A DNA stretch of 64,000 bases from contig CANQTH010000001.1 in NCBI GenBank assembly GCA_947626795.1, forward strand, positions 37,554 through 101,553, in the 5' to 3' direction. Within the stretch, counting starts at the first letter, position 1. Each line of letters begins with the position of its first letter. Source of the DNA: an uncultured Lachnospiraceae bacterium. GTDB lineage: Bacteria > Bacillota > Clostridia > Lachnospirales > Lachnospiraceae. Shown piece by piece: positions 25,306 through 50,341 of the stretch. A model generated the notes under the pieces. It searched no databases, was not told the origin of the DNA, and saw nothing but the letters and a program-made list of their open reading frames with translations. A program made the translations under genes and the position numbers.

Positions 25306-25338
25306 AGCGGCAACCATGCCTCCTCTCTACCGAAAACC

Positions 25339-31714: not shown

Positions 31715-31880
31715 CATGCGCCCGTTTAGCTGAATTCCTGTGCGGCCCTAACGCCGCCTGTTTGCTGAACTCCCGGGCGATCTGACGCCGCCCGCTTAGC
31801 TAAACTCCGGAGCGGCCCTAACGCCGCCCGCTTAGCTGAACTCCCGGGCAATCTAACGCCGCCCGCTTAGCTGAACGTCC
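31715..31880. repeat. About 35-bp tandem repeat x5 anchored on the pelE stop codon
   Basis: ACGCCGCCCGCTTAGCTGAAC-like units at about 31721, 31751, 31785, 31821 and 31856. Confidence 0.8.
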
Positions 31881-33273: not shown

Positions 33274-35468
33274 ATCCCCACATCCTCTTGAATGAAGCTT
33301 CGGTACCCGACATTCTCAAACCGCCGGATCACAAAATCGGCGTCCGCCTCATTTGTATTAGAAAGCAGCGCGTAAAGCCGCCCGTTTGCCATCTTCCCGA
33401 TATAATCGCTCTGGCGCATCAGCTTCGCCAGCTCGTCGCCGGATTTTTCCAGATCTTTCCCATCCGTCTCGATCTCCAATATAGCGCATTCCGTAAGCCC
33501 CTTGTTCCTGGCGGTCAGATATGCGCGGACCAGCGACTCGAACGCGTCCGTGTCCAGCACTTTCGTCCCCTCCAGATACCGCTGCTGCTCCAGGGCATCC
33601 AGGTAGCGGTTCGCGCGCAGCACGGCGTTCTGGATCAGGTAGCCGATGATGATCAGCATGTTCGCCTGGCTGAGAGTCATGCGTTCCCACGGGATCCCCC
33701 AGACCATCAGGATCAGCTGCATCTCGTCCTCCGCGAAGATGGCGTCCGCCATCAGCGGGTACTGCGGATCCATGCTCCGGTTGATAAACACGCGTTTTTC
33801 CTTCAGGAGGCTGTACATATCCTCCATCTTCGTATATTCAATGGAATTGCCCAATTCCCTCGCCTTCGGCGAAGTCGCGGAAAAAAGACGCGCAAAAGAA
33901 CGGTTCGCGACCGTGTAGATCGCCACGTCCTTGCTGTCCACCAGGCGCGCGAGGACTTCAGCCGCATAAAACAGCACCTCCGACGGCTCGTACTGATCCA
34001 GGCTGGACGTAATCTCATAGATTTTCCCGAAACTGTCATTCTGGTTGACAAGCTGCACCTCCAGCATATTCTTAATGCGGACGTTGCTTGTGTTGATGTC
34101 CTGGATGTCGTCCAGCTGCGTCACCATATATTGGACTTCGTGCTTATTCTCATTGCGGATATTGCGCAGCCTGTCCTTCATATAGCCGACCGCCAGTCCC
34201 AGGATGAAAAGCTGCGCGATCCAGACATACGTGTTGTAATCCAGCAGGACTTCCAGCCCCGTACGGGTGTACATCTGCCGGAAGCAGTAGCCCCCGACCG
34301 CCAGCACCGCCGAAAACGTCGCCTGCTGCTGCCCGTACACGATCGCGAACAGAAGCACATACAGCAGATAAAAGTCCAGGTTCGCGAAATACCTGCTCCC
34401 GACCGCCCGGTTGTTCAGCATGAAAAACGGGATGAAGCAGACCATATTTTCAATAAAAGGGACCAGCGCGGTAAAAATGACGCGGAACGTCTGCCGCCAG
34501 CTCCGGTTCCGCTTCCCGCGGATATCCTCCACGTCGACAAAGCTGCTGCTGTATTTCCGGATGTACCTTACCATCTTGACGGCGACCTCGTTGACATGAT
34601 GGAAGATCGTCAGACCGAACTCGCTCGCGAACGCGCGGTTCTCCAAGATCACGCGCACCGTGCCGCCCACGGTGTTGTCCGTGATGGACGCCTCTTTTCC
34701 CATCTCCTTCTGGATCATCTTGGCGAGATCCATTTCGTTGATCTCCTCGCCAGATGAGATATGGTAAAGCCCCTGCTTGAGTTCCGGGGCGGCGACCACT
34801 TTATAGATCGCCTCCACCGCGTCGTCCACGTACAGCATGGAAAAGACCTTGTTCGCATTCGCCTGGATATACCCCGTGCGGACGGCCTCAACGCACATCT
34901 TCGCGCAGGGATTGGACTCGACCGCGTACTGGTTCGCCCCGCCGCTCCGATCCGGCATCATATACAGATGGTCCATGCGCAGGATCACCGTATCGACGCC
35001 CATCGTCTGCTTATAGTTCCGGCAGACCTCCTCTCCCTGGACGATCGCCACGCTCCGGAAACTGTAAGCCGACGGCTCCTCCCGCTCGTCGATGTCGTTC
35101 GGGTACGACTGGGAATAGACCTCCTCCGAAGAAAGGTAGATGAACCGACCGCCTTTCAGCATGGAAAACGACGTGAGGACGTTCTGCAGGGCCGTCTGGT
35201 AACGCACGGACTCTTTCCGGGGATCCGACCAGTCGAAATTGGAATCGTACACGCCCAGGAAGATCGTGACATTCGGGCGGACGCTGTCGAAAATCTCCTT
35301 GAGGCAGTCGCTCTCGTACGGGAAACGGTATTTCTCGTAGGCGTTCTTATAGCTGCCGACCTGCGTCTTGCTCCCGGTCAGCACATAGCAGCGATGCCCC
35401 TCTTTATTCAGCTTGTTTATCATCGTCCTCATCAGCTCATTGTCGCTGCCGACCAGCAAAATCTCCAT
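33270..35468 (-). CDS. pelD: PelD-like protein fused to an N-terminal degenerate NAD-epimerase domain
   Basis: SDR-fold N-terminus (YLSSEEVY), TM bundle, GAF-like region, degenerate GGDEF with RxxD (RQSD). Confidence 0.72.
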   Translation of the reverse strand: MEILLVGSDNELMRTMINKLNKEGHRCYVLTGSKTQVGSYKNAYEKYRFPYESDCLKEIFDSVRPNVTIFLGVYDSNFDWSDPRKESVRYQTALQNVLTSFSMLKGGRFIYLSSEEVYSQSYPNDIDEREEPSAYSFRSVAIVQGEEVCRNYKQTMGVDTVILRMDHLYMMPDRSGGANQYAVESNPCAKMCVEAVRTGYIQANANKVFSMLYVDDAVEAIYKVVAAPELKQGLYHISSGEEINEMDLAKMIQKEMGKEASITDNTVGGTVRVILENRAFASEFGLTIFHHVNEVAVKMVRYIRKYSSSFVDVEDIRGKRNRSWRQTFRVIFTALVPFIENMVCFIPFFMLNNRAVGSRYFANLDFYLLYVLLFAIVYGQQQATFSAVLAVGGYCFRQMYTRTGLEVLLDYNTYVWIAQLFILGLAVGYMKDRLRNIRNENKHEVQYMVTQLDDIQDINTSNVRIKNMLEVQLVNQNDSFGKIYEITSSLDQYEPSEVLFYAAEVLARLVDSKDVAIYTVANRSFARLFSATSPKARELGNSIEYTKMEDMYSLLKEKRVFINRSMDPQYPLMADAIFAEDEMQLILMVWGIPWERMTLSQANMLIIIGYLIQNAVLRANRYLDALEQQRYLEGTKVLDTDAFESLVRAYLTARNKGLTECAILEIETDGKDLEKSGDELAKLMRQSDYIGKMANGRLYALLSNTNEADADFVIRRFENVGYRSFIQEDVGI

Positions 35469-35537
35469 ATCTACCTCCCTTGGGCCTTTCCGGAAACAGG
35501 ATCGGAACTATCCGGCGCCAAGGCCCGCAAGCGGATC

Positions 35538-35789
35538 TTAAAACCCCGCCGCCCGCAAACCTTCCAAAAATTGCCGGGTGTCCTCCGCGGCCTCCGCCCG
35601 GCTGATCCCGTACTGCCCGCTTAGGTACGCCGCGATCTCTTCCACGCCCGCGCCGCCGTCCGCAAGCTCCCATATTTTTGCCGCGCTCTCGTTCAGCTCG
35701 ATCGGCGGCTTGTAATGCTTCCCGTCCTGCTCCATGTCCAGAAGCCAGTAGCTTCCCGCCGCTTCCCTGAGCCTGTGCCTTTTCTCCAT
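35538..35789 (-). CDS. PqqD-family RiPP recognition element (stand-alone RRE)
   Basis: 83 aa; LNESAAKIWE...VEEIAAYLSGQYGISRAEAAEDTRQFLEGL is the PqqD wHTH pattern. Confidence 0.85.
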   Translation of the reverse strand: MEKRHRLREAAGSYWLLDMEQDGKHYKPPIELNESAAKIWELADGGAGVEEIAAYLSGQYGISRAEAAEDTRQFLEGLRAAGF

Positions 35790-35829
35790 CCGCATCCCCT
35801 CGTTACCAAAACCCATGCCCCGCAGCCGC

Positions 35830-35925
35830 CCGCCTCTCTTAAAGAGGGCCTCGTTTCCTGCGGTTCACAATGCGCTGCGCCTTGCAATCATCCGCCTCTC
35901 TTAAAGAGGGCCTCGTTTCCTGCGG
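35830..35925. repeat. 34-bp exact duplication of the S26 peptidase 3' end (period 62)
   Basis: CCGCCTCTCTTAAAGAGGGCCTCGTTTCCTGCGG at 35830 and 35892. Confidence 0.9.
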
Positions 35926-36347
35926 AACAAAACGTGGATCGCCACCGCCACCTTGTGGCGGATCGGGCGCATCCGCAGCCACAAAGCGGCATACAGGCGG
36001 TAAGGGACGGATCGGACGGCGCATTGCCTTCCCTTCCGCACGAAAGCCACCATCTTTCCCCGGAGCTGATCTTCCCGGAGCGGCCCTTCCACCTGCGTCT
36101 GGTTGTCGCCCACCATATAATACCCATCCGGCCCCGCCTTCCAAACGCGATGCAGCACCAGGATGCCGCCGTCCCTCCGGTAAAGCACGACGTCCCCGCG
36201 CCCGGGCCGCCCGTCAAGCGGCTCGATGACGACGCTGTCCCGTCCCGGCACGAGCGTCGGGTACATACTGTAGCCGTTTACCGCCGTCTGGATCATCTTC
36301 CCTTCCCGCAGCAACTGCTCGATATCAATTTTGGCTTCCATGCCCAT
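35901..36347 (-). CDS. S24/S26-family peptidase
   Basis: GYSMYPTL (catalytic Ser), GDVVLYRR, LHRV (His in place of Lys), GDN; no N-terminal TM. Confidence 0.82.
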   Translation of the reverse strand: MGMEAKIDIEQLLREGKMIQTAVNGYSMYPTLVPGRDSVVIEPLDGRPGRGDVVLYRRDGGILVLHRVWKAGPDGYYMVGDNQTQVEGPLREDQLRGKMVAFVRKGRQCAVRSVPYRLYAALWLRMRPIRHKVAVAIHVLFRRKRGPL

Positions 36348-36509
36348 CCCTGCCGATCCGCTGTATTCCTTCCGGAACTTTGCGCCTGCCGCAAAGCCCG
36401 GCTATTTTTCCACGTCATTTTATTATAGCATTCTTTGTCTGAAAATGCTATAGCCTAATCAGAAAAAGGTTTTAACGGTTTTAACCGTAATCTCTTAAAA
36501 AATCCCCCA

Positions 36510-36560
36510 AAAAAAGGCTGCCGCGATCGATCTGTCCATCGGTTGCGGCGGCCCTTTTCC
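36510..36560 (-). terminator. Intrinsic terminator after the GRE operon
   Basis: GGCTGCCGCGATCG...CGGTTGCGGCGGCC stem flanked by A/T runs. Confidence 0.6.
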
Positions 36561-36712
36561 TGCGCCTGGCTCAAACTATCCGTATTTTCTGCTCTAAGCC
36601 CAAACTATCCGTATTTCCTGCGCCTGGCCCAAACTATCTATATTTCCTGCTCTAAGCCCAAACTATCCGTATTTCCCGCGCCTGGCCCACACTATCTATA
36701 TTTCCTGCGCCC
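36556..36712. repeat. 29-bp tandem array x5 (alternating A/B units)
   Basis: CA(A/C)ACTATC at 36572, 36601, 36630, 36659 and 36688. Confidence 0.85.
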
Positions 36713-36730
36713 GGTCTAACAATCCCGCAT

Positions 36731-39265
36731 TCAGAACGACAGTTCCGTGCGGTGGATCAGATCCATCTGCAGCGGCTTCCCAAGCTCCACGAAGTACGCG
36801 CTGTACCCGGCCACGCGCACCAGCATATCCTTGTAATCCTCCGGTTTTTTCATCGCCGCCCGCATCATCTCGCTGCTCATGATGTTAAACTGGCAATGCA
36901 TCGCCTTCTTGGAAAAATAAGCCCCGATGAAGCCGACCAGGTTCTCGCGGCCTTCCTCCCCCGCGACGCATTCCGGCGGGAATTTCCAGTTCAGGAGCGT
37001 CCCGTTCGTCGCGAGGCTGTGATCCACCTTCGTGACGGAATTGGCGATCGCGGTCGGGCCGCTGATATCGTGGGACGCCATCTGCGTATGCACCGGCCCC
37101 ATATTGTCGGACAGCGGCTCCCCGGCTTTCCGCCCGTCCAAAGAAGCGGCCAGATCCATGCCAAGGCTCACGTTGGCGTTCACCGTATAGACGCCCGGGC
37201 AGAACGTCCCCCCGCGCGGGTTCTTCCTGTTCGAGACGTTCCTGCAGTAGCAATTGAACACTTCCTGGAACAGCTCGTCCGCGTAGTCGTCGTCGTTTCC
37301 GTAATGATGGACTTTTCCGCTGTTCACCAGCGCATAGAGGACGTCATGCCCTTCCCAGTTGTCCGCGATCGCCTGCATCAGCTCTTCCCCGGTATACTTC
37401 TTCTCGTCAAACACCAACTGCTTGATCGTGGAGAGGGCGTCCGCGCAAGTGCCGATGCCGCTCGCCTGCGGCCCTGTGAAATTGTATCTCGCGCCGCCTT
37501 CCCCCAGATCTTTCCCCTGCTGCATACATCCCTCAAAGAAGGCGGAAGCATACGGGATCGGCTTTAATTTCCGATGCGCCTCGTCAATGAGGTTAATGCC
37601 CTCGCACATCAGCCCCGTCCAATAATTCACCTGCCGGTCAAAGCTTGCGAGGACTTCCTCCATGCTCTTGCATTCCGTCAGCCTCCCGGTGTCCGGCCCT
37701 AAGGATTTTCCGGCCCCGGCGCACTGCGCGTAGCGCGGGCAGCCGCTCCCGCAGCCGATGCACCGCCCGCCGTTTAACGCAAGCTCCAGCACTTTTGCGA
37801 GGTTCATGTAAGCGGCGTCGTGAAGCCCGTATTCCTGCCCTGCCAGATCCGGCTCCACGCAGCCGACCACTTCGTAATTCCTGGCTTCTTCCAGGCTCAT
37901 CCCCTTGCGCCGCATGGCCTCGATCGCCGCGTCGTCGTTGAACAGCTTCGGATGCCCGTACCCGGCGCGGATGCATTCCACGGCCTTCACGCGAAGCTCG
38001 CGGGGCGTCCCCTTATGCATTCGGACGCAGAGCCACGGGTTCATCATCCGCGTATGGACGGAAGCCTCCAGCATCATGAACGTAAGGTCGTTCGTCACGT
38101 CATTCCCGTTCTCGTTCACGCCGCCGATCGTCAGGGACTCCCCGCCCCAGCCGCGGCCGTTGCGCACCCGCACGGTCATCCTGTCCTTGAGCTTGGACGG
38201 GTTGCCCATCTTCACATACGCGCATTCCAGCAGCTCCTGGGCAAATTCCTTCGAGATCTCATGGTTCTCGATATCCTGCTCATAATAAGGATACAGCCAT
38301 TGGTCCATCCGCCCGTAGGACACGGAATGCCCGTTCGACTCAATGAGCGTGATCGTCGTCGCGAAATGCCAAAGCTGGATCGCCTGCCACATGGTGGCCG
38401 CCGGGCCGCCCGCGATCTGCCTGCAGTTCTCCGCGATCTGCAAAAGCTCCATCTTCCGCTTCGGGTCCTGCTCCTCTACGCTCTGCAAAAGTGCCAGCGG
38501 CACAAACCGCTTGATGTAATCGCAGGACGCCTGAAGCTCCATTTCCATCGCCTCGTAAAATTCCTTCTTTTCTAAGTATTCCGGGCTTTCCAACTGGCCG
38601 GAGGCCTCCGCCTCCCGCCGGGCCGCCGCGAGATTCTCCTTCGCCTCCGCGATCAGCCCCTGGTAGCCGACGCGCAAAAGCTTCTCATAATCCATGACAA
38701 AATGCCCGATCCCGCCGAAATGGTAGAGGTTCGTCATATAAACGCGCTTCCCCATCTCGCTGCCTTTCCGATGTTCTTCGTCCATCGCGGCCTCCACGGC
38801 GTCCGCCACGGTCTTCCCGCGCCAAAATTCCAAAAGCCCCAGCAATTCCTCCCTGTCTTCCTCCGTGATATAAAACTTGTCATGCTCGCGCTGGTCGAAC
38901 GGATGGTGCAGCAGCTCGTCAATGATCCATTCCACGGAAAACTCCGGGTAAATGGGGGCCGCCTTCGCCGGAGCCGCGAGCTCCCCGACGATCAGCTCAT
39001 CGTCATAGATCTGGATCTCCACATTTTCCAGGATATTCTTTAAGGCATACGCCGTCTTCATCTTCGGGGACGCGTCAGGATGCTCCTGATAAGCCTGCGT
39101 GACCAGGCGCGCCCGCTGGATGTCTATGTTGAATTTCCGGTCCAGGAACACGCTCCGCAAGCGGTTCACCCGCTCGTACGGGGAAAAATCGTCATGCCCT
39201 ACCCTGTATCCCACGCCATAATTCATATCATACGGCTCTGTGCCGCAAGGATGCTTCTTACTCAT
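36731..39265 (-). CDS. Glycyl-radical enzyme, diol-dehydratase-like clade (not PFL)
   Basis: Gly loop RVAGYSAYF; single-Cys loop VGCVEP; ESNGHS, GLHD, GIGH and PGVY motifs. Confidence 0.88.
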   Translation of the reverse strand: MSKKHPCGTEPYDMNYGVGYRVGHDDFSPYERVNRLRSVFLDRKFNIDIQRARLVTQAYQEHPDASPKMKTAYALKNILENVEIQIYDDELIVGELAAPAKAAPIYPEFSVEWIIDELLHHPFDQREHDKFYITEEDREELLGLLEFWRGKTVADAVEAAMDEEHRKGSEMGKRVYMTNLYHFGGIGHFVMDYEKLLRVGYQGLIAEAKENLAAARREAEASGQLESPEYLEKKEFYEAMEMELQASCDYIKRFVPLALLQSVEEQDPKRKMELLQIAENCRQIAGGPAATMWQAIQLWHFATTITLIESNGHSVSYGRMDQWLYPYYEQDIENHEISKEFAQELLECAYVKMGNPSKLKDRMTVRVRNGRGWGGESLTIGGVNENGNDVTNDLTFMMLEASVHTRMMNPWLCVRMHKGTPRELRVKAVECIRAGYGHPKLFNDDAAIEAMRRKGMSLEEARNYEVVGCVEPDLAGQEYGLHDAAYMNLAKVLELALNGGRCIGCGSGCPRYAQCAGAGKSLGPDTGRLTECKSMEEVLASFDRQVNYWTGLMCEGINLIDEAHRKLKPIPYASAFFEGCMQQGKDLGEGGARYNFTGPQASGIGTCADALSTIKQLVFDEKKYTGEELMQAIADNWEGHDVLYALVNSGKVHHYGNDDDYADELFQEVFNCYCRNVSNRKNPRGGTFCPGVYTVNANVSLGMDLAASLDGRKAGEPLSDNMGPVHTQMASHDISGPTAIANSVTKVDHSLATNGTLLNWKFPPECVAGEEGRENLVGFIGAYFSKKAMHCQFNIMSSEMMRAAMKKPEDYKDMLVRVAGYSAYFVELGKPLQMDLIHRTELSF

Positions 39266-40223
39266 CTTTTTTACCCTCCTTCGTGGTCGTTCCGGCAATG
39301 CACGGGATGCCCCGGCGATTAAAATATGCCGCGAATCCTTTCACTTTCTCGCTGAATTTATCTTTATCCACCTCTATGCCCTCCATCGGGTAGGGGATGC
39401 ACAAAGAAGCGTACTTCTCTTCCCCCAGGCGCATAAATTCCAATAATTGGAGCTGCAGGATCTTCCCTTCCAGCTTCCCGCAGAGGAAATCCGCCGTAGC
39501 TTCCATGTTTTCCTCCGCGTCGTTGACCCCCGGTATCACGGGAATCCGCAAAATGAGCGGCTTTCCCGCCCGCGTCAGCCTCTCGATGTTCTCCAGGATC
39601 CGTTCGTTCCCAATCCCGGTATATTTCTTATGGACCGCCGAGTCCATATGCTTCACATCCGAGATGTACAGGTCCGTGACCGGAAGCGTCCGCGCGACCA
39701 CGTCCCATTCCGGGCAGAGCGTCGTCTCCAGGCAGGTATGGACGCCTTCTTTTTTGCATTCCTCAAACAGCCCCGCGACAAATCCCGCCTGCAGGAGCGG
39801 CTCGCCCCCGGATACCGTGACGCCGCCGCCGGAGTTCTTATAATAAGGAATGTCTTTCCTTATCACCTCCATCGCTTCCGCCACCGTGATCTTCTTCCCC
39901 CACTGCTTGATGGCGTCCGCCGGGCAGGCCTCCGCGCACTTCACGCAGTTAGCGCACCGTTCCTTTTCTATGGCGGCCAGCTTCCCGTCCCGGAACAGGA
40001 GCGCCCCCTGGCCGCATTGCTTCACGCAGCTGCCGCATTTGTCAAGCCCTAAGCATTTTGAAGGATAGATCCCCGCCTGTATGTAAGGCTTGTGGCTTTC
40101 CGGGTTCCCGCACCACTTACAGCTTAGCGGGCATCCTTTTAAGAAAAGCTCCGTCCGGATCCCCGGCCCGTCGTGTATCGTATAACGCTGCACATTGAAC
40201 ACAATTCCCGTTTCCTGCTCCAT
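39258..40223 (-). CDS. GRE activating enzyme (radical SAM with ferredoxin insert)
   Basis: HDGPGIRT, CPLSCKWC, two extra CxxCxxC-type clusters, SGGEPLLQ; overlaps the GRE start. Confidence 0.93.
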   Translation of the reverse strand: MEQETGIVFNVQRYTIHDGPGIRTELFLKGCPLSCKWCGNPESHKPYIQAGIYPSKCLGLDKCGSCVKQCGQGALLFRDGKLAAIEKERCANCVKCAEACPADAIKQWGKKITVAEAMEVIRKDIPYYKNSGGGVTVSGGEPLLQAGFVAGLFEECKKEGVHTCLETTLCPEWDVVARTLPVTDLYISDVKHMDSAVHKKYTGIGNERILENIERLTRAGKPLILRIPVIPGVNDAEENMEATADFLCGKLEGKILQLQLLEFMRLGEEKYASLCIPYPMEGIEVDKDKFSEKVKGFAAYFNRRGIPCIAGTTTKEGKKDE

Positions 40224-40332
40224 ATCCCACTCCCATCCGGCTTAGTCCCGCGGGCATATGCCCCGCGCGGGTATGATCAACATTAGCTGCCATCCTCATG
40301 CTTTTGTTTTTTCATATCATGATGTCGTAATG

Positions 40333-40460
40333 GAATTAAACCACAAAAATTTTGCATTGTTATTCCGTATCAGAATTAAAATTTGAGAATTTTGTGTGAT
40401 TATTCCGTTACAGAATTAAAAACACGAATTTTTTTGTTTTAATTCCGTATTAGAATTATA
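40333..40460. promoter_or_regulatory. 40-bp-periodic operator-like array between the divergent GRE and ABC operons
   Basis: (T/A)ATTC-N7-GAATT at 40361, 40401 and 40441, plus an in-phase GAATT at 40333. Confidence 0.55.
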
Positions 40461-40521
40461 ATTCAAATTAACCGTGCTATTTTACAACTCGTAATCAAAT
40501 TTCACAAACAGGAGGTATAAG

Positions 40522-41286
40522 ATGTTGGAAGATTCGATCAAAAAAGTAGGTTATGCCGCAGAGTACCTTGCGCTTACCGCCGCGATCCTGGCGTTATGGT
40601 TTTTCCTGGACGTGCATGGGGACTTAAATCCCGTCATCATGCCGTCGCCTTCCAAAGTGGCCGATACGCTCGGCTCGCTGATCGGGAAAGGCGCTTTATG
40701 GGGGGATCTGCTGATCAGCGTCGGGCGTGTGCTGAAAGGATATCTCATCGCCGCGTCGCTCGGCATCGTGCTTGGCATCCTGATCGGCCTTTCCAAGCAT
40801 CTGGAGCGTTTTACGAACCTGCTCGTGCAGCTCATAAAGCCGATCCCGCCGATCGCATGGATCCCTCTTGTCATCCTCTGGTTCGGCATCGGGGAAAGCG
40901 GAAAAATCTTCCTGATTTTTCTTGGAGGTTTTTTCACCATACTAATTAATGTAATTGATGGGATCCGGCAGGCGGACCCGAAGCTGATCGAGGTTTCCGC
41001 CTCGATGGAGACGCCGCTTTTAAAGCACATCTTCCTTATGGTAATCCCAAGCGCGGCCCCGAGCATCTTCACCGGCCTGCGCACGGGGCTAAGCTCCTGC
41101 TGGATGTGCGTGGTGGCCGCGGAGCTGGTTTCCTCCAGCACAGGCCTTGGCTACCTGATCATGAACGCGCGGCAGTTCGGGCGGACGGACGTCGTCCTCA
41201 TCGGGATGCTGACGATCGGCATCATCGGGAAGATCATGGATTCCCTTTTGAAAGTCGCAGAAAAATCAGTCATTCGTTGGAATTAG
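40522..41286 (+). CDS. ABC permease, SsuC/TauC family
   Basis: KPIPPIAWIPLVILWFGIGE, WMCVVAAELV..GLGYLI. Confidence 0.9.
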   Translation: MLEDSIKKVGYAAEYLALTAAILALWFFLDVHGDLNPVIMPSPSKVADTLGSLIGKGALWGDLLISVGRVLKGYLIAASLGIVLGILIGLSKHLERFTNLLVQLIKPIPPIAWIPLVILWFGIGESGKIFLIFLGGFFTILINVIDGIRQADPKLIEVSASMETPLLKHIFLMVIPSAAPSIFTGLRTGLSSCWMCVVAAELVSSSTGLGYLIMNARQFGRTDVVLIGMLTIGIIGKIMDSLLKVAEKSVIRWN

Positions 41287-41298
41287 GAGGGATTGAAG

Positions 41299-42147
41299 AT
41301 GAAGATCACAGAAATACAGAGCGCGAAAGCGTCAGAGGCACGGCAAAACGACAGCTACATATCCGTGAAGAACCTAAGCAAGTATTTTGAGCGCAAAGGC
41401 GAAAGCCTCCATGTGCTGGACAACATTTCCTTTCAGGTAAAGAAGGGGGAGACGGTCTGCATCGTGGGCGCGAGCGGATGCGGGAAAAGCACGCTCCTGC
41501 GTGCGATCGCGGGGCTGGACGCCAACCATGACGGCATCGTCACCGTAGACGGGGCCGACGTCACGAACCCGGCGAAGGAGCGGGGCATGGTCTTCCAGGA
41601 ACACCGCCTCTTCCCCTGGCTCACAGTCGAGCAGAACATTGGCTACGCCTTAAACGGCGTGAGCAAGGAAGAGCGCAGGCGGCTCGTCCACGAGCATGTC
41701 AAGCTCGTCGGGCTGCGCGGATTTGAGAAAGTCTATCCCAGGCAGCTTTCCGGCGGCATGGCGCAGCGCGCGGGCATCGCGCGGGCCCTGGTGAACAATC
41801 CCTCCGTCCTGCTCTTAGACGAGCCGTTCGGGGCGCTGGACACATTCACCAAGATCTCCATGCAAAAAGAGCTGAAAAACATCCAAAAACAGTCGCACAC
41901 GACCATGATCCTGGTGACGCACGACATCGACGAGGCCGTATTTTTGGCGGACCGGATCTTCGTCCTGTCCGCAAGGCCCGGGAAGATCAAACGCATCGTC
42001 CCCGTCACCCTGCCGGAGCCGCGCGACCGCAACAGCTATGAATTCCTGGAGATCCGCAAGACGATCTACGACGAGTTTTTCGCGGAAGGACAGGATTTAG
42101 AAGTTCCAAAAGGAAAACGGAAAAAACCCCGCATCAGCGTGGGTTAA
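41299..42147 (+). CDS. ABC ATPase, SsuB/TauB family
   Basis: GASGCGKST, FQEHRLFPW, LSGGMAQR, LLDEPFGALD. Confidence 0.92.
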   Translation: MKITEIQSAKASEARQNDSYISVKNLSKYFERKGESLHVLDNISFQVKKGETVCIVGASGCGKSTLLRAIAGLDANHDGIVTVDGADVTNPAKERGMVFQEHRLFPWLTVEQNIGYALNGVSKEERRRLVHEHVKLVGLRGFEKVYPRQLSGGMAQRAGIARALVNNPSVLLLDEPFGALDTFTKISMQKELKNIQKQSHTTMILVTHDIDEAVFLADRIFVLSARPGKIKRIVPVTLPEPRDRNSYEFLEIRKTIYDEFFAEGQDLEVPKGKRKKPRISVG

Positions 42148-42171
42148 TATACAAGAAAAGGAGATATCATC

Positions 42172-43221
42172 ATGAAAAAAAGATTTTTAGCAACCGTAAT
42201 GGCAGTCATCCTCGGAGCGTCCGCCCTCGCGGGCTGCGGCAATGATTCCGGCGGCAATTCCGGAACGAACGCGGGAAGCGCAGATACCGAAGAAAGCGCG
42301 GACGCGAAAGGCGACCGGGAGGTGCGGATCGCCATCCAGCCTTCCGCTGCTTTTATCCCGCTCTATGTCGCGCGGGAAAGCGGCTGGATCGAAGAAGCCC
42401 TCTCCGACCTGGGCGTCACCGTCACCTGGAACGATTTTGAATCCGGCCCGCCTATGAACGAGTCGCTCTCTTCCGGGGCTTCCGACATCGGCGTGATGGG
42501 CGACGTCCCGACCGTATCCGGCATCGCGGCCGGGCAGGAATCCGAGATCGTGGCGATCGCGGCCGACGGCCCGCTCTCTTACGCAATGCTCGTAAGCAAG
42601 GATTCCGACCTTGAATCCCCGGCGGACTTAGCCGGGAAGACCATCGGCGTGACGCTTGGCTCTACCGGGCATAACCTGGCGGACAAGCTGCTCACGAAGG
42701 CAGGCCTGGACATCAATTCCGACGTTGAGCTTGTCAACATCGCTACCGGGGACGCGGCCTCCGTCCTTTCGACCGGGGAAGTGGACGCCGTCTGCATCTG
42801 GGAGCCGAACGTGACAAGGCTGGTAGAGGACGGCACAGCAAAGATCATCGGGGACGGCTCCGAATGCGGCCTGCTTGGGGTAAACCCGATCATCGCGAGG
42901 GCTGAATACGCCCAGGAGAACGCGGACGTCATCGAGGCCATCATCGAGCAGTACGCAAGGGCTGCAGCTTCCTTGGACAACCTGGACGACGACGTGAAGG
43001 CGAAAGTGTCCGACTACCTCTCCCTTGAGCCGGATCAGCTTTCAAAAGTGATCGAGAAATACGAGTACAACGTCGTATTCTCTGACGCGGATACGGAGAA
43101 CCTCCAGGATACGATCTCCTTCCTGGTAAAGATCGGGAACCTGGAAGAGGAATACGACATCGAGCCTTACGTGAAGAAAGAGTATACGGAAAACGCGGAC
43201 ATCTCCGAATATATAAAGTAA
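42172..43221 (+). CDS. Aliphatic-sulfonate-type substrate-binding lipoprotein (SsuA-like)
   Basis: Lipobox LAGC; FESGPPMNE, DIGVMGDVP, WEP. Confidence 0.85.
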   Translation: MKKRFLATVMAVILGASALAGCGNDSGGNSGTNAGSADTEESADAKGDREVRIAIQPSAAFIPLYVARESGWIEEALSDLGVTVTWNDFESGPPMNESLSSGASDIGVMGDVPTVSGIAAGQESEIVAIAADGPLSYAMLVSKDSDLESPADLAGKTIGVTLGSTGHNLADKLLTKAGLDINSDVELVNIATGDAASVLSTGEVDAVCIWEPNVTRLVEDGTAKIIGDGSECGLLGVNPIIARAEYAQENADVIEAIIEQYARAAASLDNLDDDVKAKVSDYLSLEPDQLSKVIEKYEYNVVFSDADTENLQDTISFLVKIGNLEEEYDIEPYVKKEYTENADISEYIK

Positions 43222-43287
43222 AAACCGATAAAGAAACATTTACAAACATTCCATTATCATGTATGATGTATCGTGGAAAATGGGGGT

Positions 43288-43348
43288 AACAGTTCAGTCT
43301 CACAGTTACGGACTTTGCGGTAAGTGCAAATTCCCGGGCTGAACTGTT
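43288..43348. repeat. REP-like structured intergenic element, copy B
   Basis: Core shared with 15488-15525; outer IR AACAGTTCAG/CTGAACTGTT. Confidence 0.55.
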
Positions 43349-43399
43349 GCGAAAAAGAGGCTTCCATTGGCAGCCTTGAAAAACCAAAAGGAGGACGTT

Positions 43400-44494
43400 A
43401 TGAAGAACAAATTTGTAAAGACACTTGCCATCTGCCTTGGCTTTTCGCTCCTTGCAGCAGGATGCGGGAACAGCGGGCAAAACAACCAGTCCGCAAATGG
43501 GACGGAGCAGGATGAAGCCGCGAATGAAAACGCGCAGGAAGAAACCGCGAATGAAAACGCGCAGGAAGAAACCGCGGATGAAAACACGGAAGGCGACGCG
43601 GGGGACGCGAGCCTCAACATCGCATACCAGTACGGCTTAGCTTACGCGCCTGTCGGCCTGATGAAAGAACAAGGACTGATCGAGAAGACATATGAGGAAG
43701 AAACCGGGAAGAAAGTAACCGTCACCTGGACGCAGATGAGTTCCGGCGCGGACATCAATACCGGGATTTCCGGCGGAAGCTTAAACGTCGGCTTCATGGG
43801 CGTCGGGCCTGCCGTCACCGGGGTCACGAAAGGGGTTGGATACAAGATTTTCTCCAACGTCTCCGGGCAGGAACACGGACTTATGACAAACGATGAGAGC
43901 ATCCAGTCCTTTGACGACCTGATCGGCAGCGACCACCAGATCGCGCTTGTCAACATCGGATCTTTCCAGCATATCATCCTGGCCCTGGCTTTGGAAAACG
44001 CAGGCTACGACCCGCACGCGCTGGATTCCAACATCGTCGCGATGGCGCATCCGGACGGCATGTCGGCCTTAGAAAGCGGTAACATTTCCTGCCACCTGAC
44101 CTCCAGCCCTTATATTTTTGAGGAACGCGGGGAAGAGAACCTGCATGAGATCAAAGACGTCTCTGACGCGTGGGGCGTGGACGGCTCCTTTATCGTAGGC
44201 GTGGCTTCCGAAACGCTGCACGACAACGATCCGGAGCTTTACCAGGCATTGTGCGACGCTTTGAAAGAAGCGATCGATATGCTGAACAACAGCCCGGAAG
44301 AAGCGGCGAAGATCACCTGCGAGTTTGACGGGAACAGCGAAGGAGACGAGCTGGCATATATTAAGGAAAGCAATTACACGGTCGAGACAAAAGGCTTGTT
44401 TGAGCTGGCGTCCTTCATGGCCCGGAACAACTTTATCGACACTACGCCGAACGCTTATGAGGATCTTGTCTTCGATAACGTGACCGGGGACTGA
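43400..44494 (+). CDS. Second NitT/TauT-type substrate-binding lipoprotein
   Basis: Lipobox AAGC; IAYQYGLAYAP, AMAHPD; GGAGG RBS. Confidence 0.82.
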   Translation: MKNKFVKTLAICLGFSLLAAGCGNSGQNNQSANGTEQDEAANENAQEETANENAQEETADENTEGDAGDASLNIAYQYGLAYAPVGLMKEQGLIEKTYEEETGKKVTVTWTQMSSGADINTGISGGSLNVGFMGVGPAVTGVTKGVGYKIFSNVSGQEHGLMTNDESIQSFDDLIGSDHQIALVNIGSFQHIILALALENAGYDPHALDSNIVAMAHPDGMSALESGNISCHLTSSPYIFEERGEENLHEIKDVSDAWGVDGSFIVGVASETLHDNDPELYQALCDALKEAIDMLNNSPEEAAKITCEFDGNSEGDELAYIKESNYTVETKGLFELASFMARNNFIDTTPNAYEDLVFDNVTGD

Positions 44495-44594
44495 CCCAAA
44501 GCGGTTAGGATTACGAGAGCATAAAAAGTTATCTTTAACATTTGAACTGTGCCGTCACGGCACGCAATCCCTTTTCATTATCTTTTTCTAACAG

Positions 44595-44626
44595 GCGGCA
44601 GGAATGAGAAAACCTGCCGCTTTTTT
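44595..44626 (+). terminator. Intrinsic terminator
   Basis: GCGGCAGG-10 nt-CCTGCCGC-TTTTTT. Confidence 0.75.
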
Positions 44627-44659
44627 AAATGAATGAGGTCACAAATTGTGACTTCAAAG

Positions 44660-44756
44660 AGCTGACAGAGCGGAATATGGGGCAATAATCATTGCGAAAT
44701 TAGCCAAAAAAATTGACTGCAGAATACGGAAAAGGTTTTACCAAAACTAATTTATA
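44660..44756 (+). pseudogene. DUF1016/YhcG N-terminal fragment (frameshifted)
   Basis: RAEYGAIIIAKLAKK / LTAEYGKGFTKTNLY with a shift in an A7 run; cut by the IS end. Confidence 0.65.
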
Positions 44757-44864
44757 TAGTGTCTGCTGATTGACGCTGTAACACTTGATTTTACTGACTT
44801 TTTGACACTAAGTAAATTTCATAGAAGTGGAAGATATTGAAAATAGCCAATATATTATCTATAA

Positions 44865-44901
44865 TTGACAAAATCCGTATTTTTAGATAAAATATTATCT
44901 A
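44865..44901 (+). promoter_or_regulatory. sigma-A promoter and palindromic operator; probably a leaderless transcript
   Basis: TTGACA-17-TAAAAT ends 7 nt before the ATG; TAGATAA-AATA-TTATCTA overlaps the -10 and start. Confidence 0.65.
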
Positions 44902-45188
44902 TGAATGCGGATTTTTTATTTTTTAAAACACCAAATGAAATACAAAAGATGATAGCTTCCAATGAAAGAAAATGCAGAAAGGCGGCAAAGCTAACACAGG
45001 AACAATTGAGCGAGAAATCGGGTGTTAGTCTTGGGTCTTTAAAACGCTTTGAAACAACAGGTGAGATTTCCTTACATTCTTTGTTGAAACTTGCAGTGGT
45101 ATTGGAGCAAGAAAGAGAATTTATGGAATTGTTTGAAAAAAAGCAGTACAACTCAATACAGGAGGTTATTGATGAACAGAATTCATAA
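44901..45188 (+). CDS. XRE HTH antitoxin (HipB-like)
   Basis: RKAAKLTQEQLSEKSGVSLGSLKRFETTG; overlaps the hipA start. Confidence 0.85.
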   Translation: MNADFLFFKTPNEIQKMIASNERKCRKAAKLTQEQLSEKSGVSLGSLKRFETTGEISLHSLLKLAVVLEQEREFMELFEKKQYNSIQEVIDEQNS

Positions 45189-46314
45189 ATTGGATGTATT
45201 CTATCATAATCGCAAGGTGGGAACCCTTGCAACGACAAAGGACAAGAGAATAGCTTTTTCCTATGATGCAGAGTGGCTAGCGCAAGGCTTTATAATAAGT
45301 CCTTTTAGTTTGCCTTTAAAGAGAGAAGTTTTTATTCCTAGAATGGAACCCTTTGAGGGAGTATACGGAGTATTTGCAGATAGTCTGCCGGATGGCTGGG
45401 GACGCTTGCTATTAGACCGTTTTTTGGTGCAGCAGGGAGAAAATCCTGCTAGTGTAGATAACTTGACCAGACTTGCAATTGTGGGGAGTGTAGGCTTAGG
45501 CGCCTTAGAATATCGTCCGTCCATGGAGATGGAACAGCAGCGGCAGGAAGAAGACTGGGATACTCTTTCAGAAAAATGTCATAAGGTATTGCAGTCGGAA
45601 TATGTGGAGAACTTGGATGAACTGGTGGCGCTAGGGGGGTCTTCTGGAGGTGCCAGACCTAAGGTTATGACAAAATATAAGGGAGAAGAGTGGATTATCA
45701 AGTTTCCGGCTACTATGGATAGAGAGGATATTGGAGAACTGGAATATCGGTATAACTGTTGTGCAAAGAAGTGTGGAATAGAGGTTGCGGAAACACGGTT
45801 ATTTGAATCAAAGAAGTGTAGCGGTTACTTTGGAACAAAGCGTTTTGACCGGATATATGATGAACAGGGGAAAGAACAAAAGATTCATATGATTTCTGTA
45901 AGTGCAGTGTTGGAAACATCACATAGGATTCCAAATCTTGATTATCATATATTGATGAAATTAACATTGGAGCTGACAAAGGACTATCAAGAAGTAGAGA
46001 AGATGTTTCGATGGATGTGCTTTAATGTGTTTGCTCATAATCGTGATGATCATTCTAAAAATTTTTCCTATTTATACGATGAAAAGAAGGGGCAGTATGT
46101 GCTGTCTCCGGCATATGACTTAACGTACAGCAATTCAATTGGAGGAGAACACGCAACATGTGTCAATGGAAATGGTGTAAATCCTGGAATAAGTGACATT
46201 CTTGCGGTTGCAAAGGGGATTGGTATTGCGGGTGAAAAAGCAAGGAACATTGCAAGAGAAATACAAGAAATTGTACAAAATGAATTAGGGGATGTGCAAA
46301 GACTTGGTAGTTAG
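45172..46314 (+). CDS. hipA: HipA-family kinase toxin
   Basis: DSLPDGWG, SSGGARPK, NRDDHSKNFS, LSPAYD. Confidence 0.9.
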   Translation: MNRIHKLDVFYHNRKVGTLATTKDKRIAFSYDAEWLAQGFIISPFSLPLKREVFIPRMEPFEGVYGVFADSLPDGWGRLLLDRFLVQQGENPASVDNLTRLAIVGSVGLGALEYRPSMEMEQQRQEEDWDTLSEKCHKVLQSEYVENLDELVALGGSSGGARPKVMTKYKGEEWIIKFPATMDREDIGELEYRYNCCAKKCGIEVAETRLFESKKCSGYFGTKRFDRIYDEQGKEQKIHMISVSAVLETSHRIPNLDYHILMKLTLELTKDYQEVEKMFRWMCFNVFAHNRDDHSKNFSYLYDEKKGQYVLSPAYDLTYSNSIGGEHATCVNGNGVNPGISDILAVAKGIGIAGEKARNIAREIQEIVQNELGDVQRLGS

Positions 46315-46456
46315 TGTCTGCTGATTGACGCTGTAACACTTGATTTTACTGACTTTTTACATGAAATCTGGTATAATATTTGCAAGGGTTTCAGCAAAAT
46401 AGAATCATTTTCCTTGTAGGTTTTCAAAGAATCTCACGAGCAGAGGGGCAAAAACC

Positions 46457-46783
46457 ATGTACAAACCAATTGACAAGTCACAACATTCATTTCTTGACTT
46501 CAATCAGCCAATGGGGCTGCATATGAATCCGGACAATCGCTGGATTAAAATGGCAGGCCGTATCCCTTGGGATGAGTTTGAGATAAAATATGCGGAACTC
46601 TTTCCCAGTGATACCGGCAACGCTGCCAAACCGCTTCGCATGGCGCTGGGGGCATTGATCATCCAGACCAAGTTTCAGTTTTCCGATCGCGAACTTGTGG
46701 AGCAGCTTACAGAGAACCCATATCTGCAGCGCTTTATCGGACTTCCCGGCTATCAGGAAGAGGCTCCGTATCAGCAGACACTA
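46457..46783 (+). pseudogene. IS5-family transposase, N-terminal third only
   Basis: NRWIKMA..IPWDEFE..AKPLRMALGALII..SDRELVEQLTENPYLQRFIG; no DDE domain before the right IR. Confidence 0.8.
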
Positions 46784-46950
46784 ATTATATTTTAAAGTGT
46801 TTTGTATTGATTGATTTAAAAATTGAGAAAATCACTCATCAGGATGTAGGGCAGATGGATATGTATATTCGTATGTATGATGAATTAAAACGTAGCGAGG
46901 GTGACAATCCCACTATTGGTATTGTTCTTTGTGCTGATACAGATGAAGAA
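46784..46950 (+). pseudogene. DUF1016/YhcG C-terminal fragment
   Basis: NYILKCFVLIDLKIEKITHQDVGQMDMYIRMYDELKRSEGDNPTIGIVLC. Confidence 0.75.
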
Positions 46951-46968
46951 CTCCGGCTTATTTTTCCG

Positions 46969-46997
46969 TTGACATCCCATCCGGGGCATAGTATACT
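46969..46997 (+). promoter_or_regulatory. sigma-A promoter of mntP
   Basis: TTGACA-17-TATACT. Confidence 0.8.
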
Positions 46998-47002
46998 AGT
47001 CC

Positions 47003-47110
47003 AAATGAATCCCATGAGGGAGCAGCGAGCATATGCCATTACGATTTTTTAAGCCTGGCTTATTTTAAATTGCGGGACTCACGCATAGCCGTATGGTTAT
47101 GCCTGGGTCT
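47003..47110 (+). ncRNA. Probable yybP-ykoY Mn2+ riboswitch
   Basis: AGGGAGCAGC..CCATTACG..CCTGGC..GCGGGACTC resemble the conserved segments; hairpin GCATAGCC-GTAT-GGTTATGC; lies upstream of mntP. Confidence 0.6.
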
Positions 47111-47142
47111 TTTGTCATCCAAGACGACAGGAGGAAATACAA

Positions 47143-47727
47143 ATGAAATGGAGTTTTCTATTTATCTTGAACAGCGTCCTGCTCGGCGCCGGGCTTGCCA
47201 TGGACGCCTTTTCCGTATCGATGGCGAACGGCTTGAATGAGCCAGAAATGAGAAAAAAGAAAATGGCCGGGATCGCCGGGGTATTCACCGGGTTTCAGTT
47301 TGCCATGCCGATGGTCGGATGGGTCTGCGTCCATACGATCGTCCAATACTTCCAGGCCTTTGAGAAAGCCATACCCTGGATCGCGCTTCTCCTTCTTGCC
47401 ATTATCGGAGGGGAAATGCTGATGGAAGGTTTCCGCAGCAAAGACACCGAAGAAGAATCTCCCGGCCTTGGCGTCAAGGCGCTGCTCATCCAGGGCGTCG
47501 CGACCTCCATCGACGCGCTGTCCGTCGGCTTCACCATCGCCGGGTACGGATGGGCCATGGCCCTGGCGGCCTGCGTCATCATCGCAGCCGTCACGTTCGT
47601 CATCTGCATGGCGGGCCTTGCGATCGGCAAAGGGTTCGGGACAAGGCTGTCGAACAAAGCGCAGATCCTTGGCGGCGTCATCTTGATCGCAATCGGGATC
47701 GAGATCTTTGTCAGAGGGGTTTTTTAA
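47143..47727 (+). CDS. mntP: Manganese efflux pump
   Basis: GLAMDAFSVS and ATSIDALSVG motifs. Confidence 0.9.
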   Translation: MKWSFLFILNSVLLGAGLAMDAFSVSMANGLNEPEMRKKKMAGIAGVFTGFQFAMPMVGWVCVHTIVQYFQAFEKAIPWIALLLLAIIGGEMLMEGFRSKDTEEESPGLGVKALLIQGVATSIDALSVGFTIAGYGWAMALAACVIIAAVTFVICMAGLAIGKGFGTRLSNKAQILGGVILIAIGIEIFVRGVF

Positions 47728-47738
47728 AAGCGCATCCT

Positions 47739-48383
47739 CTATTGGTGCGCTTTTTTGCGGATTTCTTCTACCAGCTTATGTACCGTTGTGCATGGACACA
47801 TTTCAGACGGCTTGTCCATCCCATTTTTCAAATATTGCGCAAGGCGGGATTCCGCGATCCGAATGGCTTCTTCTTCATCGCCATAGCGGTTCAGCATGGC
47901 ATAAATCTGCCTGTTGGATTTTTTATATTCCTGGCCGCTTTTCTTCAGAAAGACATTCGCAAATTCCCGACAGCAATGAACCGAATCCTGGCTATTGCGC
48001 ATTTTTCCAAAGTAGGCGTCAAACCAAATCTCTATGCACGGATTCGACCAGCCAACACGGATGCCCTCTCGCTCGGCATTCTCTATGATCTGATCGAAGC
48101 CCGTCACCCGGTCTCTGTCAAATACGATCCAAGGTTCCCCATATTGAGGCTCCATAGCCGCCTGCTCCCTGCACGCCGAGACAAGCGACTCCGTTTTTGC
48201 CTTGGAAACCTTAATCACGATCCGGCCCCGTAAATTCTCTGGAAGGGAATCCCTAAGCCCATACAGATAATTTTCTTCCGTTTCCTTTGTATCTGTCACG
48301 ATAAAATAATATCCAAGATCCGGAACCCTTTTACGAAAATTATCCCTTCTTGCGCGTTTTCCTCTCCTGTCTTCTTTCGCCAT
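47739..48383 (-). CDS. RloB-family protein (AbiLii-like)
   Basis: IVTDTKETEENY, WIVFDRD, WSNPCIEIWF, PCTTVHKLV. Confidence 0.85.
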   Translation of the reverse strand: MAKEDRRGKRARRDNFRKRVPDLGYYFIVTDTKETEENYLYGLRDSLPENLRGRIVIKVSKAKTESLVSACREQAAMEPQYGEPWIVFDRDRVTGFDQIIENAEREGIRVGWSNPCIEIWFDAYFGKMRNSQDSVHCCREFANVFLKKSGQEYKKSNRQIYAMLNRYGDEEEAIRIAESRLAQYLKNGMDKPSEMCPCTTVHKLVEEIRKKAHQ

Positions 48384-48419
48384 GCATTTTCTCCTTCCGA
48401 AACATATCAAAATGAACTT

Positions 48420-49664: not shown

Positions 49665-49777
49665 GACGCATTCCCTCCCTTCTTCTATTATACGCAAAAA
49701 TCCTCAAAAAAACAACATTTATATGAGAATAATTCTCAAATAAATGTTGTTTTTTCTTGAAATTTCTAATTTTCCTG

Positions 49778-50224
49778 TCATCCTCTTTTCCTGTATCCCT
49801 TAAAAAACGCCCGCAGGTTGCCCAACGCCTGCACCAGAACCTCAATCTGCTCTTCGTCCAGCCCCTCTAACGTCGCCTTCACCATCTCGTTATGGAACCG
49901 CTCATGATGTTCATACGCGCGCACGCCTTTTTCCGAAAGGCATATCAGCACCACCCTCCGGTCGATCTCGCTGCGCATTCGGTTCACATACCCTTTTTTC
50001 ACCAGATTGTTGACGGCTATCGTCAAAGTCCCGACTGTCACGGACAGATCCTTCGCCACTGTGGACATACTCTTCGGGTCTTCTTTCCCGATCGCCTCTA
50101 TGATATGCATATCCTTATTGGAAATATCCTTAAATTCATCCGTGATGATGGCTTTTTCCTCGATATCCATGATCTCGTTGAAAAGTTTTACCAGTACTTC
50201 GTTGATCGTGCTGAAGCTATCCAC
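49778..50224 (-). CDS. MarR-family regulator
   Basis: VTVGTLTIAVNNLVKKGYVNR..DRRVV. Confidence 0.9.
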   Translation of the reverse strand: MDSFSTINEVLVKLFNEIMDIEEKAIITDEFKDISNKDMHIIEAIGKEDPKSMSTVAKDLSVTVGTLTIAVNNLVKKGYVNRMRSEIDRRVVLICLSEKGVRAYEHHERFHNEMVKATLEGLDEEQIEVLVQALGNLRAFFKGYRKRG

Positions 50225-50341
50225 AAAAATACCTCCCGTTAAAATGATTGTATTTTATTATATCACAATCCAAAAATGAACGCACATTTTTTTCGTTTTG
50301 GCATAAGATAGAGAAACCATATCGTTTGGAGATGTGATATC

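Follow-up and report, generated by a model that had tools for sequence, protein, structure and literature searches.

A compact hpfHG module beside a candidate ABC-type importer of dihydroxypropanesulfonate in an uncultured Lachnospiraceae bacterium

We analyzed a stretch of 64,000 nucleotides (hereafter the window) from an uncultured Lachnospiraceae bacterium (GenBank assembly GCA_947626795.1, contig CANQTH010000001.1, positions 37,554 to 101,553 of the forward strand). On the basis of open reading frame (ORF) translations and Pfam, we found six genes in two divergent units within positions 36731-44494, one unit encoding a glycyl radical enzyme (GRE) with its activase and the other an ATP-binding cassette (ABC) importer. 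Judged from its sequence, the GRE is a member of the known HpfG family of 2,3-dihydroxypropane-1-sulfonate (DHPS) dehydratases, placed in a variant gene context. Taken as a whole, the locus is very probably a compact hpfHG module with its own DHPS-importing ABC system. With clearly less confidence, we lean towards the more specific reading that the enzyme is a normal HpfG and that the transporter, common to HpfG and HpsG loci, is the first one of ABC type for DHPS.

DHPS is a C3 sulfonate released by gut bacteria that break down the plant sulfosugar sulfoquinovose, and it is a major product of that breakdown in the gut. HpfG is an oxygen-sensitive enzyme which takes water off the (S) enantiomer of DHPS, also named (2S)-3-sulfopropanediol. 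The original work on the HpfG/HpfH dehydratase is reportedly that of Liu et al. in PNAS in 2020. Characterised HpfG/HpfH pairs come from Klebsiella oxytoca, Hungatella hathewayi and Enterococcus gilvus (Chen et al. 2024, PMC11489063).

The glycyl radical enzyme and its arginine loop

The GRE gene, hpfG, lies on the reverse strand at 36731-39265 and encodes 844 amino acids. Directly upstream on the same strand is hpfH (39258-40223), encoding a radical S-adenosylmethionine (SAM) activase with a CxxxCxxC motif and two ferredoxin-like cysteine clusters. The listed ORF of hpfG starts with TTG at 39298. We consider the ATG at 39265 the likely start, because it is accompanied by a GGAGGG ribosome-binding site and overlaps the stop codon of hpfH by 8 nt; given this overlap, the two genes are read as translationally coupled.

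Both GRE domains were detected with Pfam, namely the PFL-like domain PF02901 (E = 3.8e-199) and Gly_radical PF01228 (E = 2.2e-28), with values so low that a chance match is not an issue. A preliminary description of this DNA had listed a set of diol-dehydratase motifs, and we located all of them in the translation of hpfG: GIGH (G185-H188), ESNGHS (E309-S314), GCVEP (G468-P472), GLHD (G480-D483) and PGVY (P690-Y693). The arginine-rich loop RMTVRVRNGRGWGGESL spans R362-L378, and the glycyl motif RVAGYSAYF contains Gly820.

The NCBIfam HpfG equivalog NF048009 scored 1491.8 bits on the window GRE against a cut-off of 1000, with model positions 1-824 of 824 covered; the Klebsiella orthologue scored 1727.3 bits on the same model. 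The HpsG model NF048011, whose cut-off is 1000, reached 490.6 bits, and those for HypD and CutC stayed further below theirs (1100 and 1050, respectively). TIGR01774 was passed. The window GRE was 62-65% identical to the Klebsiella, Hungatella hathewayi and Enterococcus orthologues and 40.8% identical to glycerol dehydratase (GD). Homologues in NCBI records that are 64-75% identical already bear the name HpfG or DHPS dehydratase. HpfG itself is an already known enzyme, and the standard annotation of NCBI would name the window GRE automatically.

Further, we surveyed homologues by scanning one genome per species and obtained 80 loci with GRE relatives (given below as L numbers where needed). The relatives include Klebsiella sp., K. 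spallanzanii, Hungatella hathewayi DSM 13479 and several Enterococcus species. In a neighbour-joining tree the window GRE was placed inside a tight Klebsiella/Hungatella/Enterococcus clade, with GD far off on a long branch. The closest solved structures by sequence were GD of Clostridium butyricum (1r8w, 633 bits), 9rco (597 bits) and propanediol dehydratase (PD, 5i2a), while the structures of IslA, IseG and HpsG matched at only about 350 bits. The second of these, 9rco, is a recently deposited 816-aa 'Glycyl radical protein'. It was ruled out as an HpfG, as its loop is the FAGY loop of GD/PD type.

The GD residues Cys433, Glu435, His164, His281, Ser282, Asp447, Tyr640 and Gly763 were invariant in 80 of 80 family members. 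Their equivalents in the window GRE are C469, E471, H188, H313/S314, D483, Y693 and G820, respectively. The mechanistic roles of Cys433, Glu435 and His164 in GD have been described (PMC13450708).

We observed a clear departure from GD and PD in the loop at R362-L378. As the preliminary description had proposed, the FAGY-like segment is replaced: HFGGYPMYQNL of GD and FAGYSLFQNL of PD become RNGRGWGGESL in the window GRE. In 120 database homologues and 80 genome copies the loop has the conserved core (V/L/F)-R-(N/S/Q)-G-R-G-(F/W)-G-G-E-(S/C)-L-T. R368 and R371 do not vary at all. Position 362 holds R, K or G in relatives, and position 366 is free to vary; the loop that had been called arginine-rich is thus present, but only the first two of these arginines are conserved in the family. 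The same core was found in Klebsiella (L077, L082), Hungatella (L048) and Enterococcus (L046, L062), and therefore the loop is a general HpfG signature and no peculiarity of the window GRE. Three identities had been put forward earlier for the enzyme: HpfG-like, new, or acting on a phosphate diol. Since the striking loop is the standard signature of HpfG, the last two found no support. The first proved right, given the full-length match to the HpfG equivalog, the position in the clade and the common RNGRG(F/W)GGE loop. High identity to GD or PD had been named as a point that would speak against an HpfG-like enzyme; at 41% identity to GD, such clustering was not found.

Tyr339 of GD, which corresponds to a Phe in PD, lines the C3 pocket. 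The alignment of the loop with GD was ambiguous: HMMER paired Tyr339 with Gly375, and MAFFT deleted residues 336-339. We used only what both programs agree on, and in either alignment the Tyr339 side chain appears as lost and two arginines as gained a few residues upstream. R368 and R371 probably hold the sulfonate group. An AlphaFold2 model based on a 14-sequence alignment had a mean pLDDT of 60, with values below 50 for residues 348-412 and 463-484, which form the active-site core; no experimental structure of HpfG exists (PMC13450708).

The enzyme also carries an insert of about 15 residues with four cysteines (C502, C505, C509 and C515; C-x2-C-x3-C-x5-C), encoded at 37720-37761 on the reverse strand. 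The insert is absent from GD, PD, 9rco and the HpfG of Klebsiella and Enterococcus, and near-invariant in most Firmicutes members, including Hungatella. It may be a structural metal site. We know of no report of a metal site in HpfG.

The divergent importer and its operator

The second unit lies on the forward strand. It starts with an ABC permease (40522-41286; Pfam BPD_transp_1) related to SsuC, TauC and SaoP, followed by the ATPase (41293-42147; Pfam ABC_tran), for which the best NCBIfam models were the SaoA, nitrate and taurine ATPases, all scoring below cut-off. Two lipoprotein substrate-binding proteins follow, SBP1 of the SsuA family (42172-43221) and a second, divergent SsuA/TauA-like protein, SBP2 (43367-44494). 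The start of SBP2 is probably the ATG at 43400 rather than the TTG at 43367, judging by the translation. A divergent SsuABC-like importer with two binding proteins, as had been noted earlier, is therefore present, and both binding proteins are of the SsuA/NMT1 type.

SBP1 passed the SsuA-family model TIGR01728 (179.3 bits vs 163.5), while SBP2 scored below it (79.4 bits). The closest solved structure to SBP1 was E. coli SsuA (2x26). The permease and the ATPase both failed the respective equivalogs (SsuC, 181.7 bits vs 347; SsuB, 187.7 bits vs 395). By these scores, the importer is SsuABC-like and not an SsuABC orthologue. Across related loci the permease was 75-81% identical. SBP1 was 62-71% identical in 10 related hpfHG loci, which makes it the conserved receptor of the system. 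SBP2 is 30% identical to SBP1 and was found only in the window and in its closest relative (L022), where SBP1 and SBP2 are fused into one 679-aa ORF (110-2149) without SBP2's own signal peptide and acidic repeat linker.

We also searched in the reverse direction, scanning genomes for relatives of SBP1. This gave 62 loci at an identity of at least 43%, of which 36 had a full ABC operon. Twelve of the full operons adjoin an HpfG-type GRE and ten adjoin an HpsG-type GRE; with the addition of loci where ORF calling had missed a partner, the numbers rise to 14 and 11, respectively, or 25 genomes/loci. The HpsG-type GRE shares only 30% identity with HpfG, and the example in L087 passed the HpsG model (1369 bits vs 1000). 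The HpsG-linked loci carry a NIR_SIR sulfite reductase or a Cys/Met pyridoxal phosphate (PLP) enzyme/sulfhydrylase. Such genes are in keeping with this assignment, because HpsG is a DHPS sulfolyase. As HpfG and HpsG have the substrate DHPS in common, the ABC family is most simply read as a DHPS importer. We therefore regard DHPS as the likely cargo of the window system and SBP1 as the probable receptor for it. In the literature that we searched, DHPS uptake is attributed to tripartite ATP-independent periplasmic (TRAP) systems, HpsKLM (PMC13335735), and we found no description of an ABC-type DHPS importer; papers outside that search may describe one.

The HpsG-type sulfolyase beside the same ABC family was seen in Agathobacter, Butyrivibrio, Pseudobutyrivibrio, Eubacterium oxidoreducens, Anaerovibrio and rumen Treponema (L087, L117-L126, L139 and L163), with three GRE genes in one of the loci (L123). 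The assimilatory-type sulfite reductase or sulfhydrylase in some of them suggests that DHPS may serve there as a sulfur source.

The two units of the window are separated by an AT-rich divergent promoter region of 298 bp (40224-40521). It contains three ATTC-N7-GAAT palindromes (40362-40376, 40402-40416 and 40442-40456) at a spacing of exactly 40 bp. The copies read ATTCCGT(A/T)(T/A)(C/T)AGAAT, a string with three matches in the window vs 0.06 expected, and none of them elsewhere in the window. The exact string was absent from the other loci, and only the degenerate form ATTC-N7-GAAT is conserved. This form was present in the same spacer in 13 of 13 loci with a divergent ABC operon and upstream of two colinear ABC-hpfHG operons (L128, L131). 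Among the ABC-linked hpfHG loci it persists where the enzymes are as little as 57% identical. Of the 65 matches to it in 1.47 Mb, 23 lie in these stretches of about 400 bp. We did not find the form in L015 and L031, in the upstream regions of canonical hpfHG loci or in the promoter regions of HpsG-linked loci. Such a distribution points to a probable operator of a regulator not encoded nearby. The palindrome fits T-N11-A, which we take to be the pattern of LysR-type boxes. The regulator is possibly of LysR type; the window holds no LysR gene. An Rfam scan of 35000-46000 gave no match at E up to 0.1, hence no riboswitch.

At the other end of the hpfHG unit, inspection of the 3' untranslated region of hpfG (36509-36711, reverse strand) revealed a 29-bp tandem repeat in 5.4 copies (36556-36711), located between the hpfG stop codon and a GC-rich hairpin (36516-36553) that is followed by a T-run. 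The hairpin with the T-run looks like the intrinsic terminator of hpfG. The repeat unit was found nowhere else in the window or in 84 related loci.

Proposed pathway, gene context and alternatives

We propose that the importer, composed of the permease, the ATPase, the conserved receptor SBP1 and the extra receptor SBP2, would take up DHPS. In HpfG, HpfH would then turn Gly820 into a radical. On the model of GD, this radical would pass to Cys469, which would take a hydrogen from the hydroxymethyl carbon of DHPS while Glu471 deprotonates the hydroxyl of that carbon; His188 would protonate the neighbouring hydroxyl, which would depart as water. The product radical would regain the hydrogen and yield 3-sulfopropionaldehyde. 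During these steps the sulfonate would be held by Arg368 and Arg371, in the loop that replaces the Tyr339 loop of GD. Reduction or oxidation of the aldehyde would then fall to an enzyme whose gene lies outside the 64-kb window. In this proposal, the family assignment, the conserved catalytic residues and the counts of neighbouring genes are observed, and the substrate, the task of the arginines, the transported compound and what becomes of the aldehyde are inferred.

Canonical loci in our survey have the order LuxR-type regulator, activase, GRE, TauE-like membrane protein, Fe-alcohol dehydrogenase and permease, and the Enterococcus loci add a CoA-acylating aldehyde dehydrogenase and a two-subunit CoA ligase (HpfXYZ). 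This order matches the published hpfHG-hpfE-hpfD(-hpfXYZ) arrangement (PMC11489063). The window GRE falls into a subclade (72-85% identity, mostly uncultured Lachnospiraceae from mouse, chicken and other guts) which is without the LuxR-type regulator, HpfE and HpfD, and in which a divergent permease-ATPase-SBP operon adjoins hpfHG in 13 loci. Two loci (L001, L002) contain an NAD-type aldehyde dehydrogenase and an AMP-forming ligase, candidate downstream enzymes. The bridging loci L015 and L031 bring together an SsuA-type ABC system, an aldehyde dehydrogenase, an Fe-alcohol dehydrogenase (Fe-ADH) and hpfHG. The window sequence itself was detected in rabbit-gut metagenomes, and the rabbit gut is a herbivore niche rich in sulfoquinovose (PMC13335735). 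The DNA probably comes from a rabbit-gut member of the Lachnospiraceae or a relative of Eubacterium.

Within the 64-kb window, tblastn identified no homologue of Fe-ADH or another alcohol dehydrogenase, aldehyde dehydrogenase, CoA-transferase or AMP-ligase. Clustering identified no member of the TauE-like (HpfE) exporter family of canonical hpfHG loci in the window, and there were no microcompartment shell or sulfite-reductase genes among the Pfam-scanned ORFs (nearly all kept gene calls above 80 aa). The preliminary description, which had reported no adjacent microcompartment, aldehyde reductase or sulfite-handling genes, is borne out in this respect. The missing HpfD and HpfE are a property of the context and not of the HpfG enzyme.

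Several findings weigh against an hpfHG module with a DHPS importer. With no HpfD, HpfE, HpfXYZ or alcohol/aldehyde dehydrogenase in the 64 kb, the pathway is incomplete as seen. The activase scored 491.3 bits on the HpfH equivalog NF048008, which is 8.7 bits short of the cut-off of 500; this was still by far its best-scoring model, and on TIGR02494 it reached 324.5 bits vs 174.35. Fourteen of the 36 SBP1-type ABC operons had no GRE within 8 kb, so GRE pathways are not the only setting of this transporter family. The identity of 62-65% to orthologues of the tested enzymes leaves room for a shift of specificity, and the subclade has changes near the pocket (G(L/Y/F)HD vs GWHD, GHFVMDY vs GHLAIDY and FCPGVYT vs FSPGVYS). 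In favour of the module, only 15 alignment positions set the ABC-linked group cleanly apart from the canonical one, and none of them is catalytic.

The ABC-linked HpfG subclade has an importer and an operator of its own, the four-cysteine insert and no HpfD or HpfE, and on one reading it is not simply a DHPS dehydratase. It might handle an undescribed sulfonated diol or the opposite enantiomer of DHPS, and SBP1 and SBP2 might each select a cargo of their own; to this we give a small chance. We hold it to be improbable to much the same degree, if anything slightly more so, that the ABC-linked subclade acts on some other anionic vicinal diol, be it (R)-DHPS, another sulfonated polyol or a phosphono- or phospho-diol, and that the ABC system imports that compound. 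Such a substrate would agree with the lack of the canonical HpfD, HpfE and LuxR-type regulator in a group with an operator and importer of its own, with the substitutions beside conserved pocket motifs (W481 to L/Y/F, S689 to C and G596 to F) and with the presence of the second, divergent binding protein. However, the cut-off of the HpfG equivalog was exceeded by almost 500 bits, the two invariant arginines and every catalytic residue agree with the canonical clade, and L031 and L015, of the same lineage, carry Fe-ADH. Relatives of the importer serve HpsG as well, for which no substrate other than DHPS is known, and SBP1 belongs to a sulfonate-binding family, not to the phosphate/phosphonate one. 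A phosphate-diol enzyme was rejected on these last grounds, together with the pass on the HpfG model.

It is very unlikely that the GRE is an ordinary neutral-diol dehydratase, acting on glycerol or 1,2-propanediol, which has a sulfonate transporter as its neighbour by coincidence. GD and PD are represented among its closest solved structures, all the diol-handling residues of GD are conserved, and the GRE passes TIGR01774. Against this stand the low identity to GD and the long branch between them, the replacement of the Tyr339 loop of GD/PD, and a window in which neither microcompartment genes nor a 1,3-propanediol dehydrogenase were found. Moreover, at least 14 genomes with a common operator have the ABC operon paired with hpfHG. 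A diol dehydratase associated with a microcompartment was rejected for the lack of microcompartment genes, the 41% identity to GD and the replaced loop.

Least probable of all is that the enzyme splits off sulfite from a sulfonate, as the C-S lyases HpsG and IslA do: the sulfonate-type importer, whose relatives serve HpsG, would suit this, but we rejected it because the GRE scores well below the cut-off of the HpsG model, is about 30% identical to an HpsG, matches the IslA and HpsG structures only distantly, and has no sulfite reductase or exporter in the window, whereas HpsG-linked loci have NIR_SIR or sulfhydrylase.

The flanks of the locus contain other systems. A large Pel-like exopolysaccharide cluster occupies 14176-35468, with PelG (23830-25317), a DUF3492 and GT1 PelF-like glycosyltransferase (25339-27018), a Stealth protein (17317-18363), DUF2194 and an epimerase fusion. 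Long acidic D/E/K-rich repeats occur in several of its proteins, e.g. in that encoded at 31867-33273 and in the C-terminus of the product of 25339-27018. On the same strand just downstream of hpfG there are a small PqqD-like ORF (35538-35816) and a weak Peptidase_S24-like ORF (35901-36347), with no evident link to the hpf module. Straight after the ABC genes is a low-GC stretch (44500-50300, 42-47% GC) with a HipA kinase (45091-46314), fragments of a DUF772 transposase and a YhcG nuclease (46457-47052), MntP, an RloB and AAA_21 pair (47739-49697) and a MarR regulator. This stretch looks like mobile or defence-island debris.

Comparison with known systems

The window pair resembles the characterised HpfG/HpfH in the equivalog family, the catalytic residues and the RNGRG(F/W)GGE loop, and in having the activase directly upstream and translationally coupled. 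It differs from them in having no adjacent HpfD reductase, TauE-like HpfE exporter, LuxR-type regulator or HpfXYZ; in their place are the divergent ABC importer and a distinct operator. The four-cysteine insert distinguishes the window GRE from the HpfG of Klebsiella and Enterococcus, but not from that of Hungatella. The invariant Arg368 and Arg371 give a concrete, testable proposal for sulfonate binding by HpfG.

The fate of DHPS shapes gut sulfide, as dehydration by HpfG gives no sulfide, whereas cleavage by HpsG gives sulfite and then H2S. A group of Lachnospiraceae from mouse, rabbit and chicken guts carries hpfHG without hpfD. A survey of mouse-gut genomes in which pathways were called from genes clustered at one location listed hpfGH for Enterocloster alone (10.1101/2025.01.22.634256). 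Since these Lachnospiraceae lack hpfD beside hpfHG, the co-location survey may have undercounted DHPS users of such type.

In comparison with GD (C. butyricum, 1R8W/1R9D) and PD (R. inulinivorans, 5I2A), the fold, the Cys/Glu loop and the residues His164, His281/Ser282, Asp447 and Tyr640 are alike, and all three enzymes presumably use the same direct-elimination chemistry. The window GRE differs in the segment FGGYPMY (GD) or FAGYSLF (PD), which is replaced by RNGRGWGG, in the absence of a microcompartment/1,3-propanediol context, and in a proposed substrate that bears a sulfonate. HpsG (6LON) and IslA/IseG are, like it, GREs for C2/C3 hydroxy-sulfonates in gut anaerobes, and HpsG would have the same substrate, DHPS, and has the same type of ABC importer beside it in other genomes. 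Unlike the window GRE, however, HpsG and IslA/IseG cleave the C-S bond and release sulfite, and identity is about 30%. To bind the sulfonate they use an Arg/Gln/Arg triad at another place in the barrel (PMC13450708).

The importer has the transporter architecture of SsuABC/TauABC (E. coli SsuA 2X26, TauA 6SSY), and SBP1 passes the SsuA-family model. In contrast to SsuABC, it is linked to a catabolic GRE and not to the SsuDE desulfonation genes of sulfur starvation, and in contrast to both systems it has two lipoprotein receptors. With HpsKLM, the TRAP system characterised for DHPS uptake (PMC13335735), it would have its proposed cargo in common, as well as an association with hpsGH or hpfGH loci. 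It differs from HpsKLM in being an ATP-driven ABC system and not an ion-gradient TRAP transporter, with a binding protein of another fold family. In summary, an SsuA-family ABC system that recurs beside both DHPS-specific GREs is a strong candidate for a DHPS importer, which would be the first of the ABC type.

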